From positions 1 through 64,000 of IMG/VR virus record IMGVR_UViG_3300020399_000132: a stretch of DNA of 64,000 bases. One strand, given 5' to 3'. The stretch comes from a virus. Its lineage: Duplodnaviria > Caudoviricetes. Position 1 is the first letter of the stretch. Each line of letters starts with the position of its first letter. Under the pieces are notes generated by a model. That model did no database searches. It was given only the letters and a program-made list of their open reading frames with translations, and was not told where the DNA came from. The position numbers were made by a program, and so were the translations under genes. This document shows, one piece after another, positions 1,982 to 46,770 of this stretch.

Positions 1982-2230
1982 TCATATTGGTAATTTAGAA
2001 GTTGTTTGAATAAAATTCAAATCTTCCGCTTCCTTTCTCAGCGATCTTTTAAGATCTGTTGAAATTAGAGAAGCAGCTGTTTCATACTCTAACATATGTA
2101 ATTCACAATAATGTAATATAGCATCCATTATAGGCATCTTATCTGCTAACTTTATAACATCTATATTAAATTTTTCAGGTGATAACATCTTAATCATATT
2201 TTTCTTATCAATATCAATTTTTTTCGCCAT
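1982..2230 (-). CDS. 33: T4 gp33-like late transcription coactivator
   Basis: MDAILHYCE..LEYETAASLIS..LKRSLRKEAEDLNF...KLPI; 33-59-32 synteny; start taken at MAKK (2230). Confidence 0.88.
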   Translation of the reverse strand: MAKKIDIDKKNMIKMLSPEKFNIDVIKLADKMPIMDAILHYCELHMLEYETAASLISTDLKRSLRKEAEDLNFIQTTSKLPI

Positions 2231-2684
2231 AATCCCCATCATATTTGTGAAGTGTTTCTGCCTTAGCTATAACTAAATGAGCAAACCGAGTATTTGGTTT
2301 TACAGTAGTTTCACCACCAATATTATACAAAGTCGCACCTGCATAATCTTTAAATCCTGAATCATATATTGAACTAATAATTAAAACTCCATTCCTATTA
2401 AAAGTACTCCTGCCGAGAAGAATTGCAATTTCACCTTCTGCTATATTTACATGTTGTTTAGACTGAATTTCATAACAAGCACCCTGATCTAAAACAAAGT
2501 TACCATTTTCATCGACTTTTTGTTCTATTGATTTTCTATGTTCTTTTTTATCTTCATCCATATGCATTGGTCCTCGACCAATTTTAAAAACCTTATCGAC
2601 TCGTAAATCAACAGTATTTGGTTGAATCATTGTTTCATCGATATTTGTAACCTCAGTAGAGGCATTCACGGGATGTATAAACAT
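2214..2684 (-). CDS. dUTPase/dCTP deaminase family protein
   Basis: QPNTVDLR, GRSTFNRNG, YDSGF motifs; terminal YDGDY. Confidence 0.8.
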   Translation of the reverse strand: MFIHPVNASTEVTNIDETMIQPNTVDLRVDKVFKIGRGPMHMDEDKKEHRKSIEQKVDENGNFVLDQGACYEIQSKQHVNIAEGEIAILLGRSTFNRNGVLIISSIYDSGFKDYAGATLYNIGGETTVKPNTRFAHLVIAKAETLHKYDGDYGEKN

Positions 2685-3295
2685 TATTCTCCAAAATGAT
2701 AGGGATTTTCTTTTGTTTCAAATTTCCACTTTTCTTCTAAAACATCAGTTCCATAATCTAACTTCCACATTATATTTGGTACTGCTGGTGTTGATCCTTC
2801 AAACTTAGTTGAAGAAAAAGAAGCACCGTCTTTAAACAAAGGACTGATTTCGTTACGAAAAACATATATTTGATTTTCATGATATAACATGCAAGCAAAA
2901 GTTCCATCTACTTCATTTAGATCTTCATTTAATGCTTGATCAAATAACCATTCCGTATCCCAATCACCTTCAAATTTTCCTTCTTTAATAATACCATTAT
3001 GCCACAAATATGATTTGTCTTTTTCAGCAGGATGAATAAATCTACCTGTTGCTAAATCAGTATTATTAACTTCTTTTGATGTTGGTGCTTGTTGATGCAC
3101 TACACAATAATCCCAATTTCCATCTAATAAATCTAAATCTAAAGGCCCGTAAGATTTTGTTTGAGATTTAAGGTCTAGACCATCATCGGTATACAAAAAC
3201 TGAGAAACCGAATGTGATTCTTCCCCGCGGTATCTATTTAGGTCAACTAATTTGAGTAAAAGCTTTTTATCTTTACTTGCTGAAATACTACACAT
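2684..3295 (-). CDS. class II (Ntn) glutamine amidotransferase-like protein; the GAT half of a Gat-QueC-like pair
   Basis: N-terminal MC nucleophile, NxYRG, HQQAPT, HP, LWHNGII, WDTE, DGTFAC, RNEISPL; coupled to queC. Confidence 0.8.
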   Translation of the reverse strand: MCSISASKDKKLLLKLVDLNRYRGEESHSVSQFLYTDDGLDLKSQTKSYGPLDLDLLDGNWDYCVVHQQAPTSKEVNNTDLATGRFIHPAEKDKSYLWHNGIIKEGKFEGDWDTEWLFDQALNEDLNEVDGTFACMLYHENQIYVFRNEISPLFKDGASFSSTKFEGSTPAVPNIMWKLDYGTDVLEEKWKFETKENPYHFGE

Positions 3296-4031
3296 GCCAG
3301 TCTATCTCTTTTTGATATGGAATTGGATCCGGATCACCAATATTCATAAATGCCTTAATACGTTCACTACATGAAGGACATACTCCACAACTTTTTCCTT
3401 CTACATCCGGATCATAACAAGTTAAAGTATGTTGTAATAAATTGTATGTTCTCAATTCTTTACAAATTTTAAGTTCTTCTGTTTTGCTCAATAAAGAAAA
3501 CGGTGCAATAATTTTTGTTTTAAATGTTCTATTTAAAACTGTGATCTCATTAAGTGCATCAACAAAAGCTTGACTAGTATCCCAATAACCATATTCATCA
3601 TGAACTTGAAGACCACAAAAAATATATTCCGCCTTTACCACTTCTGCAAAAGCACAAGCATTACTCAATAACATCATATTTCTAAATGGAACATATGTTA
3701 CGGGTTGAGGATCTCCTAATACTTCTTTAATGTCAGGCATATCAATATCAGTACCAGATATATTTGCACTAATAGGTTGAACTAATTCTCCAAAATAACC
3801 AATATCTAATTGTTTATGTGCCACCCCTAATTCTCGACATAAGTCTTTTGCTTTTCCGCATTCAGCTACTTGTTTTTGTCCGTAATTAAATGTTAAAGCA
3901 AATACTTTTTCTGGTCCATAATGCCGGGCCAACATCATTGTAACAATAGAACTATCCATGCCGCCTGATAATATAACAGCGACATTATTTTTAATCTCTG
4001 GAAGTTTATTTCTGGCTTCTTGTAAATTCAT
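3288..4031 (-). CDS. queC: 7-cyano-7-deazaguanine synthase QueC
   Basis: LSGGMDS PP-loop, FNYGQK, TYVPFRN, TLTCY...CGVCPSCSER zinc site; ATG start at 4031. Confidence 0.93.
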   Translation of the reverse strand: MNLQEARNKLPEIKNNVAVILSGGMDSSIVTMMLARHYGPEKVFALTFNYGQKQVAECGKAKDLCRELGVAHKQLDIGYFGELVQPISANISGTDIDMPDIKEVLGDPQPVTYVPFRNMMLLSNACAFAEVVKAEYIFCGLQVHDEYGYWDTSQAFVDALNEITVLNRTFKTKIIAPFSLLSKTEELKICKELRTYNLLQHTLTCYDPDVEGKSCGVCPSCSERIKAFMNIGDPDPIPYQKEIDWHV

Positions 4032-4032
4032 A

Positions 4033-4263
4033 TTAACCTTCTTCAACAGTCTTGATTAATCTTTCAAGATACCATTTTGATTTTTTTAAATCTTCTAATT
4101 GTTTTTCTTTATTTTCATAACCCTTTTCCGTTTTCTTACCAGCTCGTAATACATACTTAACAATATTACCACGATGAAAATTTAAATCAAACGCTTCTAT
4201 AACATCAATTGCTTCTAAGTTAGTATTACTTTGATAATGTTCGGGGTCTATTTTATTAGCCAT
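4033..4263 (-). CDS. DUF3310-like phage protein
   Basis: PEHY, EAIDVIE, GNIVKYVLRAGKK, EDLKKSKWYLERLI; start taken at MANK. Confidence 0.8.
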   Translation of the reverse strand: MANKIDPEHYQSNTNLEAIDVIEAFDLNFHRGNIVKYVLRAGKKTEKGYENKEKQLEDLKKSKWYLERLIKTVEEG

Positions 4264-5128
4264 GCGTTCCTGAATATGTAAAATATTTGTAATAATCCAA
4301 ATCCTTTGGATATTTTCTCTCGGGAAATTTACCTGTAACAATTTGTCTGAAGGTATCAACATTATAATATAAAAGATCTAAATTAATATCTTCTTCTTTC
4401 ATATTATAAACAGAATCAAATGTTGATTTCGGTTTTTGTGTCAATCCATGAATACCTGCATAAGGGGTACCATCTAATGCTGACATCACCGGATTAGAAG
4501 TATCTATACTATGAATCCAGTCATAGTCTCTATAATGCGCAAACTCTCTTGCTTGCCAAGTCCCCAATAAATGATGTCTGTATTCTTTCCTGATACATTC
4601 TCTATCCATTTTCTCAAGTAATTTAATTCTTTCATTTGCTTGAAGAGTCGGGTCTTTATCCTGCCAAGAATAAACAAAAGGAATACCAATTATTGGCCAG
4701 AGCTGACCACCTCCAGCTTTTCCTTCACCATATTCAATAAATGCATTATAACATTCAATCATTTCATCTGGTGTAGAACCTTGAATGACCGGCATAGCAT
4801 GAGTAGAAGTAATGGGATAATCATTAGCAAATTCAAGAGACCTTTCCAATGTTCTTTTTTTGTCTCCAAGGACATCTGGCAAAACAACATAGTTTGGTTC
4901 TAATCTTTCATACCAATCATAAAGAATATCATTATCTAATGATTCTCCTAATTCAAAACAACTATTATCAAGATAAGTAAATTCTCCACAACCTGCGAAT
5001 TCACAAACCATCTCTGCATAATTTTTATCTTCTAGAATTTTGTGAAGCAATACAAATTGATAATCGCTAATAAAATCTTGATGTTCATCAATTAAACATC
5101 TGGGAATTTCATGTGAAATATATGTCAT
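4256..5128 (-). CDS. TGT-fold guanine transglycosylase-like protein (DpdA candidate)
   Basis: LDNSCFELG, VLPD, PVIQG, HHLLG and SIDTS align in order with TGT barrel motifs; lies between folE and queC. Confidence 0.7.
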   Translation of the reverse strand: MTYISHEIPRCLIDEHQDFISDYQFVLLHKILEDKNYAEMVCEFAGCGEFTYLDNSCFELGESLDNDILYDWYERLEPNYVVLPDVLGDKKRTLERSLEFANDYPITSTHAMPVIQGSTPDEMIECYNAFIEYGEGKAGGGQLWPIIGIPFVYSWQDKDPTLQANERIKLLEKMDRECIRKEYRHHLLGTWQAREFAHYRDYDWIHSIDTSNPVMSALDGTPYAGIHGLTQKPKSTFDSVYNMKEEDINLDLLYYNVDTFRQIVTGKFPERKYPKDLDYYKYFTYSGTHG

Positions 5129-5129
5129 G

Positions 5130-5807
5130 TTAACTCATTAAAGATCTACATCCAGCTAAAAATTCTCTACGACATTCACCGTCTTCGAATTGCCCTGATG
5201 CTGAAAATGTAGCTGTTGAAGATCGAAGATCTTGTATGCCACGGGATTTGACACAAAAATGTAAACCATCAATTTGAACGGCAACATCTTCTGTTTCGGC
5301 AACAAGCGCAATCGTCGCGCGTATTTGTTCTGTTAGTCTTTCTTGAACTTGTGGTCTTTTAGAAAAGAATTGAACTATTCGATTTAATTTTGAAAGCCCC
5401 AAAACTACATCATTAGGAATATATGCTACAGACGCTACTCCATCAATAACAATAAAATGATGTTCACAATATGATTGAACATTAATATTTCTTTCAAGAA
5501 CAAAAGAACCCCTATAATTCATTGAATTTTTAATTTTTGTACATTTTGGAAATCTGTCATAATCCATACCCCAAAAAACCTCATTAACATACATCTGAGC
5601 AACTCTTTTTGGTGTATCACATAATGAATCATCTTCAAGATCTAATCCTAGATCATCCATAATTTTTTCAAAATGTCCTTCAATATTTTTAATAGATTTT
5701 TCAGAATTAAAATTTCCTCGCTTCATTGGAGTTTCTAATCCTAAAGAAATTAAATGCTCATTCACTTTTCGACCCAACTCTGGATCGCATTTTCTACGTA
5801 CTTCCAT
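5130..5807 (-). CDS. folE: GTP cyclohydrolase I
   Basis: DTPKRVA, SYCEHHF, GLSKLNRIV, RPQVQERLT, HFCVKSRG. Confidence 0.96.
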   Translation of the reverse strand: MEVRRKCDPELGRKVNEHLISLGLETPMKRGNFNSEKSIKNIEGHFEKIMDDLGLDLEDDSLCDTPKRVAQMYVNEVFWGMDYDRFPKCTKIKNSMNYRGSFVLERNINVQSYCEHHFIVIDGVASVAYIPNDVVLGLSKLNRIVQFFSKRPQVQERLTEQIRATIALVAETEDVAVQIDGLHFCVKSRGIQDLRSSTATFSASGQFEDGECRREFLAGCRSLMS

Positions 5808-5918: not shown

Positions 5919-6122
5919 TTATTTTTTGCACTCGTCGAATGATATAATGTTACCGCGGGCATCAAGTTTAATTTTTTTAATACCAAATCGGGTTTCCATA
6001 CTTTTCTTTTTTCGATCATCAGAAGCTATATGATCAAGGTCTTTCCAATAGTTATTCATCTGTGTGACTTTTTGTTTTGAAGTCATTAAACGTTCTAAAA
6101 AATTTTTAAAAGTTTTCATCAA
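5919..6122 (-). CDS. small basic hypothetical protein
   Basis: 67-aa ORF with MKTFKNFLE N-terminus, typical of T4-like head-associated small proteins. Confidence 0.6.
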   Translation of the reverse strand: MMKTFKNFLERLMTSKQKVTQMNNYWKDLDHIASDDRKKKSMETRFGIKKIKLDARGNIISFDECKK

Positions 6123-6631
6123 TCGTGCTCCAAAAATTTAACTCCATCTCGTTCTTCTAGAAGTTTTCTATTTTTCATATGTTCTGCTTCAATTTCCTCT
6201 TTACTTCCACCAAAATAGCCAACAGCATAACCATGTTCACACATCCATTTGTTTACATTGGTCCAGCCCGAAAACTCGTGGCCATCTTCGGTACAATTAA
6301 TCCAGAGTTCTCCGAGAATTCTTCCGAATTTACCTCTACTGTCTTTCTCTGGACATCTAACTTGAACTTCGATATCATCCCTGTCCGACACAATTGCCCA
6401 ATGTAACCACGACTTGAGGGCGGTCGAGGAGAGTTTTCCGTAAAACTTTTCTGCCAAATCACGAGTTCTTGATTCTGGTGTATCGATTCCCAACAAACGG
6501 ATTCGTCCACAATACCTAACATCGAACCCCAAATCAATAACTGCATCAACAGTATCTCCATCTACAACCCTCTCTATTGCCGTTATGTGGTAAATAAACT
6601 CACATGGATTATCGTTTTTATATTCAGCCAT
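6119..6631 (-). CDS. staphylococcal nuclease (thermonuclease) family protein
   Basis: VVDGDTVD, RIRLLGIDTPE, GKFGRILG. Confidence 0.9.
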   Translation of the reverse strand: MAEYKNDNPCEFIYHITAIERVVDGDTVDAVIDLGFDVRYCGRIRLLGIDTPESRTRDLAEKFYGKLSSTALKSWLHWAIVSDRDDIEVQVRCPEKDSRGKFGRILGELWINCTEDGHEFSGWTNVNKWMCEHGYAVGYFGGSKEEIEAEHMKNRKLLEERDGVKFLEHD

Positions 6632-6649: not shown

Positions 6650-7002
6650 TTTGTAGCTGACCGTGCTTCTGTTCCCAAGTGACGGCCACAACTCGGCTAT
6701 ATTCTACGCAGCGATTGCGTAAGAGTATGCAGTATAATCGTCATTGTTTGCGATTAGTTTGATGGACCGTTACGGTGGTACCTCTGCCGGATATCTCTTT
6801 ATCTTACTTCACAATCAATCGAAATCTATTTCAGCCCCATCAACGAAAGTCATATCCAATAAAAAGTGTGGCATAAGTAATACCTAATGCGAGCAATATA
6901 ATTATTGCGAGCCACATTAATTTCTTTTCCATAACTTCCTTTGGTGGAGCTGATCGGAATCGCACCGATGTCTTAACTGTTATCTAGATATGTCAACGAT
7001 AT
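6650..7002 (-). ncRNA. ssrA: circularly permuted (two-piece) tmRNA: acceptor piece ~7002-6942, coding piece 6838-~6650
   Basis: Acceptor piece ends GACATCGGTGCGATTCCGATCAGCTCCACCA (T-arm, A discriminator, CCA). The downstream piece starts GGGGCTGAAATAGATTTCGA, forming the GGGGCUG/CAGCUCC stem with G3-U70. Tag frame 6751-6704 reads ANNDDYTAYSYAIAA*, followed by pseudoknot-forming pairings CCGAGT/ACTTGG and TGGCCGT/ACGGTCA. Outer ends are approximate. Confidence 0.9.
6840..6932 (-). CDS. 30-aa single-pass membrane peptide encoded inside the tmRNA intervening segment
   Basis: AAGGAAG RBS directly after CCA; MEKKLMWLAIIILLALGITYATLFIGYDFR*; stop lies 1 nt before GGGG of the coding piece. Confidence 0.65.
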   Translation of the reverse strand: MEKKLMWLAIIILLALGITYATLFIGYDFR

Positions 7003-7652
7003 CATCTATATTTATTAACCCATGGAACTCTCATAGAAATATCTTTTTTTTCAGATATTCCAGTTGATTGACCCTTATTAAAAAGAACTATGGGATAATC
7101 CAATTCTTCGTAATTAGAAAAATGTGCTGAATAATAAAATTGATCTGGTATACGAATAGGGTCTAATTTTTTCATCCAAAGATATGTATCAAAGCCGCCA
7201 TATTTTTCAATATCTTCAAATTCAAATTCTTCCCAAATTTTTAAACTTGTATTTGGTTTCCATCCTAATATTGAAGAATTATACGGAGTACATAATATAT
7301 TTCTATTTCTTTGATCTTCGAAATTATCCATATGTTCCCTCCAACGGGCCCACGGAGCACATAGATAATCTTGTTTTTCTACCCAATCAAATAAACTATC
7401 TATATTACCTTTTATTACAACATCTAAATCAAATGCTAAAACAACATCTTCTGTAAACTGTTCTATTATTGGTGAATGATATAAAACTTTGGTCCACCAT
7501 TTAGGAAGAATTGGTTCATCAAATACACGAAAATTTATATTATAAGTAGTATTTTTAAATACCATTTTTTCTAAACGTTGTATATCTTTAATAGTATATT
7601 TGTCTCCTACACATATACATGCAACGGCTCTTCGTATGCAATTTATTGCCAT
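7002..7652 (-). CDS. GT-A fold glycosyltransferase-like protein
   Basis: CVGDKY, KWWTKV, FDLDVVI (DxD), YNSSILGW, GGFD. Confidence 0.7.
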   Translation of the reverse strand: MAINCIRRAVACICVGDKYTIKDIQRLEKMVFKNTTYNINFRVFDEPILPKWWTKVLYHSPIIEQFTEDVVLAFDLDVVIKGNIDSLFDWVEKQDYLCAPWARWREHMDNFEDQRNRNILCTPYNSSILGWKPNTSLKIWEEFEFEDIEKYGGFDTYLWMKKLDPIRIPDQFYYSAHFSNYEELDYPIVLFNKGQSTGISEKKDISMRVPWVNKYR

Positions 7653-45999: not shown

Positions 46000-46770
46000 T
46001 TATTTTTTTCGTTTTTTAATTTTAATTTTCGGCCCCAGTTTTATTTTCTCTTTCTTCTTTTTTGTTGTGATTATTATTTCACATTCTTCTATCATCATAT
46101 CATAAAATTTAATTAATCTATTTTGTTGGTGGCCGCTCATATGGCTATATGCCTCTTTAAAATCTACATCTCCTGCTTTGGCTAATTTTATTTCACTGGC
46201 TAGATCTTCAATATGTGGTTTTAAATGTTTAGCAACCGGTTTTGAAACTTTATTACGTTCTAAAAACTGTTTGAAATTAAATTTCTTTTTAAATTCTTCT
46301 TCAACTTGTTCATCAATAACATCTTCTATATCATATTTTAATTTTTTCGCTGCATCTCGAATTCTTTGCTGAATATCTGGCTTTATTCTTTCCTTTGACT
46401 CTACTATTACTTTACGTTGCTTAGCAATCTCTTCTATCTTTTTTAATTTTTGAATAAAGAGCTCTTCATATTCTTCTGGTAAACTCTTTAATCCTCTTAT
46501 TTTCATTCGAGCAATATAACCAACATGATTTCCAACCTCGATTAAATCGGTAATTTTAAGTTTTCCGGGAGATTTACTTTTTACTTTATTTTTTTTATAA
46601 TATTCTTGAACAAAATTCATACTCTCTTTAAAATCAAAAAATTTATAATACCATCTAAAGGCTCCATGAATTTCAGATTTTAATTCTTCGTCCGGTAAAC
46701 TATCCCAATCAATTGGATCCGGTTCGTCTCCCATATATTTTGCATTAATACTTCTTTTTGAAAAAGCCAT
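46000..46770 (-). CDS. hypothetical protein
   Basis: 256-aa lysine-rich ORF in operon context. Confidence 0.6.
   Translation of the reverse strand: MAFSKRSINAKYMGDEPDPIDWDSLPDEELKSEIHGAFRWYYKFFDFKESMNFVQEYYKKNKVKSKSPGKLKITDLIEVGNHVGYIARMKIRGLKSLPEEYEELFIQKLKKIEEIAKQRKVIVESKERIKPDIQQRIRDAAKKLKYDIEDVIDEQVEEEFKKKFNFKQFLERNKVSKPVAKHLKPHIEDLASEIKLAKAGDVDFKEAYSHMSGHQQNRLIKFYDMMIEECEIIITTKKKKEKIKLGPKIKIKKRKK

Follow-up and report, generated by a model that had tools for sequence, protein, structure and literature searches.

The closest described counterparts of the locus analysed here are the two-piece tmRNAs of marine phages and the permuted tmRNA of the alphaproteobacterial Caulobacter type (Keiler, Shapiro and Williams 2000, cited in PMC9004378; Rfam RF01849). 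A two-piece tmRNA was described in phage Melnitz, which infects a gammaproteobacterium (OM43) and in which a glutamine riboswitch follows the tmRNA gene (Buchholz et al. 2022; PMC9004378). In the same work, ARAGORN predicted 53 two-piece tmRNAs, mostly from marine phages and 50 of them aquatic, in a set of 18,146 phage genomes; Melnitz and the pelagimyophages are included, and 17 of the 47 contigs of the Melnitz cluster have such an RNA (PMC9004378). A tmRNA database published in 2025 holds 79 phage sequences (PMC11915505). Since phage two-piece tmRNAs have already been published, the tmRNA presented below is in itself of a known kind. A preliminary description of this DNA had named Alphaproteobacteria, some marine cyanobacteria and some Betaproteobacteria as the carriers of permuted tmRNAs; the list leaves out the published phage cases.

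The locus lies in an IMG/VR virus record of 177,419 bp (G+C 33.6%, four tRNA genes), complete according to CheckV, whose first 64 kb make up the window, that is, the whole stretch of DNA that was analysed. The minus-strand genes around the tmRNA are T4-like and comprise gp32, gp59, a dCTP-deaminase-like protein, QueC, GTP cyclohydrolase I and an SNase-like endonuclease. The major capsid protein (gp23) is 67–70% identical to the homologues of cyanomyoviruses, Melnitz and HTVC008M, all Kyanoviridae; for the phages with a described two-piece tmRNA the identity is 67–69%. Neither psbA nor a tyrosine integrase was found in the phage genome, and SmpB, whose absence from the window had already been remarked on in the preliminary description, was not found in the whole record either. 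From this capsid kinship and the lack of SmpB, psbA and an integrase, the phage is classed as a lytic T4-like marine myophage that has no close relative in culture. The host is probably not a cyanobacterium. In the window, positions 2214–5807 (minus strand) contain the clustered genes of the dCTP-deaminase-like protein, QueC and GTP cyclohydrolase I, interspersed with unassigned ORFs, a grouping that suggests 7-deazaguanine synthesis.

Like Melnitz and the pelagimyophages HTVC008M and Mosig, this virus is a T4-like marine myophage of the same family-level group with a permuted tmRNA of the alpha type. The phage gene shares with those of Melnitz and HTVC008M a UGAU leader before G1, an AACAGAA 3′ loop, a non-canonical T-loop and a tag of the -YALAA type. 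As a whole, the locus is very probably a functional gene for a circularly permuted tmRNA in two pieces, alphaproteobacterial in structural type and borne by a lytic T4-like (Kyanoviridae-like) marine myophage, as judged from sequence comparison. Its predicted parts and the gene that follows it are, in the order of transcription:

7009–7016, minus strand: tentative T4-late-promoter-like box AATAAATA, separated by 5 nt from the first tmRNA helix that follows.
6942–7003, minus strand: acceptor piece of 62 nt, with the 5′ strands of the inter-piece helices, the T-arm, the acceptor 3′ strand, the discriminator A and an encoded CCA; RF04321 positions 1 to ~64; helices 1–5 covary.
7003–6999 with 6794–6790, minus strand: inter-piece helix GATAT/ATATC.
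6979–6973 with 6818–6812, minus strand: inter-piece helix CAGTTAA/TTGATTG.
6953–6969, minus strand: T-arm ATCGG/TGCGATT/CCGAT; 98.9% paired cells and 5 of 5 pairs changed on both sides in 35 homologues.
6952–6946, minus strand: acceptor 3′ strand CAGCTCC, followed by the discriminator A (6945) and CCA (6944–6942).
6839–6941, minus strand: intervening segment of 103 nt, an insertion relative to both RF04321 and RF01849.
6840–6932, minus strand: mini-ORF in the intervening segment, with a Shine–Dalgarno sequence (SD) AAGGAAG at 6941–6935, ATG at 6932, 30 codons and TGA at 6842–6840; encodes a hydrophobic single-helix peptide.
6654–6838, minus strand: coding piece of ~185 nt, with the acceptor 5′ strand, the 3′ strands of the inter-piece helices, the pseudoknot region, the tag ORF and the 3′ terminal structure, as placed by the RF04321 and RF01849 alignments.
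6838–6832, minus strand: acceptor 5′ strand GGGGCTG, 103 nt downstream of the CCA end.
6764–6789, minus strand: pseudoknot-1-like element upstream of the tag, with the stem CGG/CCG and a loop pairing of GG-AC with GUCC.
6704–6756, minus strand: resume context UAAUC (6756–6752) and tag ORF from GCA to TAG (6751–6704; TAG at 6706–6704).
6654–6699, minus strand: hairpin at the 3′ terminus, whose loop CUUGGGAACAGAAG is invariant; aligned to the 3′ end of alpha_tmRNA.
6119–6631, minus strand: SNase-like endonuclease gene (Pfam SNase, E 5.7e-10; PHROG 452 endonuclease, E 9e-31).

The gene order is permuted, with the T-arm, the acceptor 3′ strand and the CCA preceding the acceptor 5′ strand and the tag. 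The acceptor stem of 7 bp (GGGGCUG/CAGCUCC) has the G3–U70 pair at 6836–6948. The permuted order, with the CCA ending at 6942 and G1 at 6838, as well as the T-arm, the alanine-type acceptor stem with its G3–U70 pair and the two inter-piece helices listed above, had all been pointed out in the preliminary description, and each is present as it was read there. The second T-loop position carries G in place of U (TGCGATT), and the same G is found in HTVC008M (TGCAATA); in tRNAs, U55 is nearly universal at this site. When the two presumed mature pieces were folded together with RNAcofold (ViennaRNA), 26 of the 27 model pairs were recovered, at −66.0 kcal/mol.

The Rfam model of permuted tmRNAs (RF04321, tmRNA_permuted) matches positions 7003–6704 on the minus strand over its entire length (model positions 1–213 of 213), with 109.1 bits against a cut-off of 47 and an E value of 2.3e-20 over the 64-kb window, a match far beyond chance. 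The same model gives 113.4 bits for Melnitz and 90.6 bits for HTVC008M. Among the subtype models that had been proposed as a check, alpha_tmRNA (RF01849) matches 7043–6658 on the minus strand with 61.7 bits against a cut-off of 50, whereas the beta model (RF01850; 39.0 bits against 84) and the cyano model (RF01851; a partial match of 31.7 bits against 70) both fall short. In the alpha_tmRNA alignment, one 7-bp model helix is missing here and 20 model positions are deleted. By these models the tmRNA is of the alpha subtype in structural type only, with one helix of the alpha model missing. A cyanophage origin of the tmRNA was considered and discarded, given the failure of the cyano model and the lack of psbA.

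The gene shares with the Caulobacter type the permuted order, the pairing of acceptor and coding pieces, the G3–U70 pair, a non-canonical T-loop and a similar 3′ loop (...GGCAACAGAA). It differs from that type in being encoded by a virus without SmpB, in the missing helix and in its protein-coding spacer, and it exceeds the RF01849 cut-off by just 12 bits. From the described marine phage tmRNAs it differs in its tag, and from Melnitz also in that the glutamine riboswitch was not found here even at an E value of 1.

ARAGORN, the other check that had been proposed, found no tmRNA in the 64-kb window or in the whole genome. Across the family assembled below, ARAGORN 1.2.41 called 51 of 84 copies (61%) as permuted tmRNAs, with tags of the same kind, so that counts of phage tmRNAs made with ARAGORN come out too low for this family. 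The long spacer was rejected as the cause of the miss, detection being independent of spacer length, and so was the T-loop variant, since 12 of the 35 copies with TGCGATT were called.

Homologues were gathered in two ways. The protein of the downstream nuclease gene, used as a query, returned 80 viral loci, many with the same RNA upstream, and a scan of IMG/VR with the 3′ motif of the family gave at least 120 stretches. In total, at least 125 copies of the tmRNA were collected, of which at least 88 are distinct. A pattern scan with a TTCGA T-loop brought up mostly unrelated tmRNA-like loci, which served as an outgroup only. In a blastn search of the tmRNA gene against 50,697 phage records, no match was obtained even at an E value of 1. 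This result, together with the lack of the glutamine riboswitch, sets the present tmRNA apart, at the level of sequence, as a subfamily distinct from the Melnitz/HTVC008M kind.

Covariation was counted on an alignment of 35 diverged copies from marine viral contigs, with an Rfam-type structure. The acceptor stem is paired in 100% of the cells, and the third pair is G–U in 35 of the 35 homologues. The three inter-piece helices (helices 1–3), two of which had been proposed beforehand, are 77–91% paired, and 14 of their 15 pairs have changed on both sides; over the whole structure this applies to 28 of 35 pairs. The covariation score was 0.427, against 0.166 in shuffled alignments (none of 500 reached 0.427) and 0.05–0.13 in slid registers. 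In the pseudoknot region, helices 6 and 7 are 63% and 45% paired over the whole 35-copy alignment, a low overall value because other subgroups have a different element there; within the subgroup that shares the layout, compensatory changes in the pseudoknot-1-like element can be seen by eye. The stem sequence that flanks the loop of the 3′ hairpin varies between relatives, with complementarity kept.

The tag at 6751–6704 (minus strand) reads ANNDDYTAYSYAIAA*, as had been noticed at the outset. Tags of the family come in 32 variants of 15–17 amino acids and the form AN(N/D)xDY...YA(L/I)AA*, all of them in frame. All end in A(L/I)AA or nearly so, the present copy in AIAA and the majority of the family in ALAA; -YALAA is the end of the E. 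coli tmRNA degron. The tag ORF is intact wherever a family member has a recognisable resume context, and changes in its length are of whole codons. The sequence TAATCGCA around the resume codon (UAAUC-GCA context) is invariant in 35 sequences, and UAAUC is one base off the E. coli UAGUC element that sets the resume frame. Judged from these comparisons, sequence, fold and tag are under strong purifying selection. The RF04321 match, the covariation and the retained tag frame together bear out the core of the preliminary description, a phage-encoded, permuted two-piece tmRNA.

The apparently unpublished and unusual part of the gene is its protein-coding spacer. The intervening segment starts with AAGGAAG right after the CCA, and the TGA of the mini-ORF lies one base before G1. 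This SD is identical to the ribosome-binding sequence of the downstream nuclease gene. An ATG-initiated ORF of at least 26 amino acids is present in 58 of 59 distinct spacers of 88–117 nt, whereas 10.5% of shuffles of matched composition have one. The 25 variants of the present spacer-peptide class have a dN/dS of 0.40, and the two other frames are always closed. No match for the spacer peptide was found in PHROG. In relatives, the length of the spacer ranges from 15 to 205 nt, and its contents elsewhere in the family are unrelated hydrophobic peptides of 26–32 amino acids, a basic protein of 50–59 amino acids, remnants, or ORF-free stretches of 15–33 nt. The spacers of 176–205 nt (seven copies) encode this strongly basic protein of 50–59 amino acids, which ends in ...HEHFxKDWDxDLWD and is conserved across several contigs. 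Deletion-remnant spacers of 42 nt (two copies) and 58 nt (five copies) have also been observed, with the spacer ORF truncated and the tmRNA intact. For the RNA, the peptide gene is therefore dispensable.

The spacers of the described relatives are organised differently. In HTVC008M the spacer is a 49-nt hairpin, whereas here it is a closed ORF of 30 codons for a membrane peptide. The Melnitz spacer, of 142 nt, has an SD (GGAGAAG) and an ATG that open a frame of ~50 codons running into the 5′ acceptor strand, unlike the closed ORF of the present gene. In the GenBank record of Melnitz (MZ577097), the only feature annotated over this spacer (~46077–46218) is the tmRNA. A full-text literature search for tmRNAs with an intervening segment gave nothing relevant, and such a layout was not described in what it covered. 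As contents of intervening sequences, the paper on the tmRNA database names no more than a tRNA gene and a repeat element (PMC11915505). A partial parallel is offered by tmRNA genes with a group I intron, which may carry a homing endonuclease gene (PMC11915505) and so likewise place a protein gene in a stretch removed from the pre-tmRNA. That case, however, involves self-splicing in the T-loop and a selfish nuclease (PMC11915505), in contrast to the putative tRNA end-processing and the 30-amino-acid membrane peptide considered here.

By analogy with known permuted tmRNAs, the intervening segment would be absent from the mature RNA. Ribosomes initiating and terminating on the mini-ORF would cover both acceptor strands, so any one precursor molecule should either be translated or adopt the tRNA-like fold, and the peptide would then come from the spacer after its excision or be produced ahead of folding. 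It is on balance favoured, by a small degree, that the pre-tmRNA serves two purposes, with the same tRNA end-processing that cuts out the mature tmRNA also freeing the 103-nt spacer as a minimal mRNA for a membrane peptide, and that the spacer is a slot for swappable small genes in this lineage. As read, this minimal mRNA has its SD at the 5′ end, 30 codons and a stop 1 nt from the 3′ end. With practically nothing left beyond the stop codon of such a freed mRNA, the tmRNA could in turn act on the translation of this message.

Scans for sigma-70 promoters and intrinsic terminators found none on the minus strand near the tmRNA, and no U-tract follows the 3′ hairpin. The SD of the nuclease gene starts 12 nt past the 3′ structure of the tmRNA. 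Taken together, the lack of a flanking promoter or terminator and this close spacing suggest that the RNA is cut from a polycistron. In 33 of 72 family loci that were found independently, a homologue of the nuclease follows on the same strand, which suggests a recurrent, not an obligatory, association with the tmRNA. Of 77 distinct upstream contexts, 74 have TAAATA ahead of the tmRNA, its distance taking a few fixed values. It is kept in these contexts though the upstream genes differ, which suggests a T4-type late promoter. The assignment of the AATAAATA box as such a promoter is tentative, and the region upstream of gp23 in the same genome, which has CTAAAATA only, gives it no support.

The working of the gene can be outlined by analogy with the Caulobacter-type tmRNA. 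A single precursor would be transcribed within the minus-strand polycistron, host RNase P would cut before G6838, and 3′ processing would trim the RNA to the CCA at 6942. The 62-nt acceptor piece and the ~185-nt coding piece would be held together by the acceptor stem and three further helices, and the host AlaRS would charge the RNA via G3–U70. Host SmpB, assumed to be compatible, none being encoded by the phage, would take the RNA into stalled ribosomes. Translation would resume at GCA6751, adding ANNDDYTAYSYAIAA, a degron-type tag of the -YA(L/I)AA form. The likely gain, as a conjecture, would be that ribosomes are kept free while host and phage mRNAs are degraded during infection. The idea of the preliminary description that the RNA may offset RNA-cleaving defences of the host is speculative.

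The subtype of the tmRNA does not identify the host of the phage. The preliminary description had taken the permuted form as a possible hint at the host, a suggestion that proves weak, since Melnitz combines an alpha-type tmRNA with a gammaproteobacterial host and any host inference from the subtype is unsafe. In the genomes of 185,579 species, the 3′ motif of the family was found in three contigs only, all from MAGs and of taxa unrelated to one another (Pacearchaeota, Nitrosopelagicus and Acidimicrobiaceae). Two of them (Nitrosopelagicus and Acidimicrobiaceae contig 32) belong to this phage family, one having the nuclease gene downstream and the other a 103-nt spacer; from these features they look like mis-binned phage DNA. 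In the Pacearchaeota MAG contig (221,868 bp), the 3′ motif is present and the tRNA-like domain was not found. Some of the ‘archaeal tmRNAs’ of PMC11915505 may have their origin in such mis-binning.

Three other accounts of the locus have been weighed against a functional tmRNA that supplements the trans-translation of the host. The RNA could mainly compete with or reprogram the host system, taking up SmpB and stalled ribosomes and attaching a tag chosen by the phage that meets a different fate, namely slower or faster proteolysis. SmpB is not encoded by the phage, so that of the host must be shared, and the tag is longer than and unlike the ANFNEYALAA of HTVC008M, with AIAA at its end where ALAA prevails in the family. 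The tmRNA of mycobacteriophage DS6A, which consists of the tRNA-like domain only, is likewise phage-borne and in need of host SmpB, and it is reported to inhibit the host tmRNA (PMC11915505); it has no tag ORF, however, whereas the tag is complete and conserved here. The tag also has the canonical AN..Y...A(L/I)AA layout of an ordinary degron, and sequence cannot tell competition from supplementation. This account is considered improbable.

It could also be argued that the tRNA-like fold serves chiefly as punctuation for RNA processing, with RNase P and 3′-end trimming acting at both acceptor strands to free the spacer mini-mRNA and the nuclease mRNA from a polycistron, and with trans-translation secondary or lost. 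The position of the spacer ORF, right after the CCA and up to 1 nt from G1, its strong retention and the fact that no terminator separates the tmRNA from the nuclease gene would all fit. For such a role, however, the conserved tag ORF, the invariant resume context, the covarying inter-piece helices and the 3′ structure would be superfluous, and the full tmRNA is kept in relatives with ORF-free spacers of 15–49 nt, which leaves this proposal very improbable. Hardly any credence is given to the view that the phage acquired a tmRNA gene from a host and that the locus is what is left of it, no longer active, even though the authors of the Melnitz study suggested that tmRNA genes may reach lytic phages through prophage exchange (PMC9004378). 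Against it stand the compensatory changes, intact tag and invariant G3–U70 pair in at least 88 distinct variants, the absence of the family 3′ motif from the genomes of 185,579 species save the three MAG contigs, two of them phage, and the lack of an integrase in the genome. The same lack of an integrase eliminated an attachment-site remnant, a further candidate for the locus. A functional two-piece tmRNA thus remains the preferred reading.

The tmRNA alone adds little to what is known. What emerges is that marine T4-like phages include a large group, uncultured and present in more than 120 IMG/VR contigs, with an alpha-type two-piece tmRNA of their own and without SmpB, in which one standard tool (ARAGORN) misses ~40% of the tmRNAs. 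Furthermore, the tmRNA subtype of a phage is an unreliable marker of its host, and where a tmRNA gene turns up in an ‘archaeal’ MAG or another one in which it is not expected, its source can be phage DNA that was mis-binned. If the spacer ORF is expressed, the gene would provide a compact route to a small protein and a ribosome-rescue RNA from one processing event.
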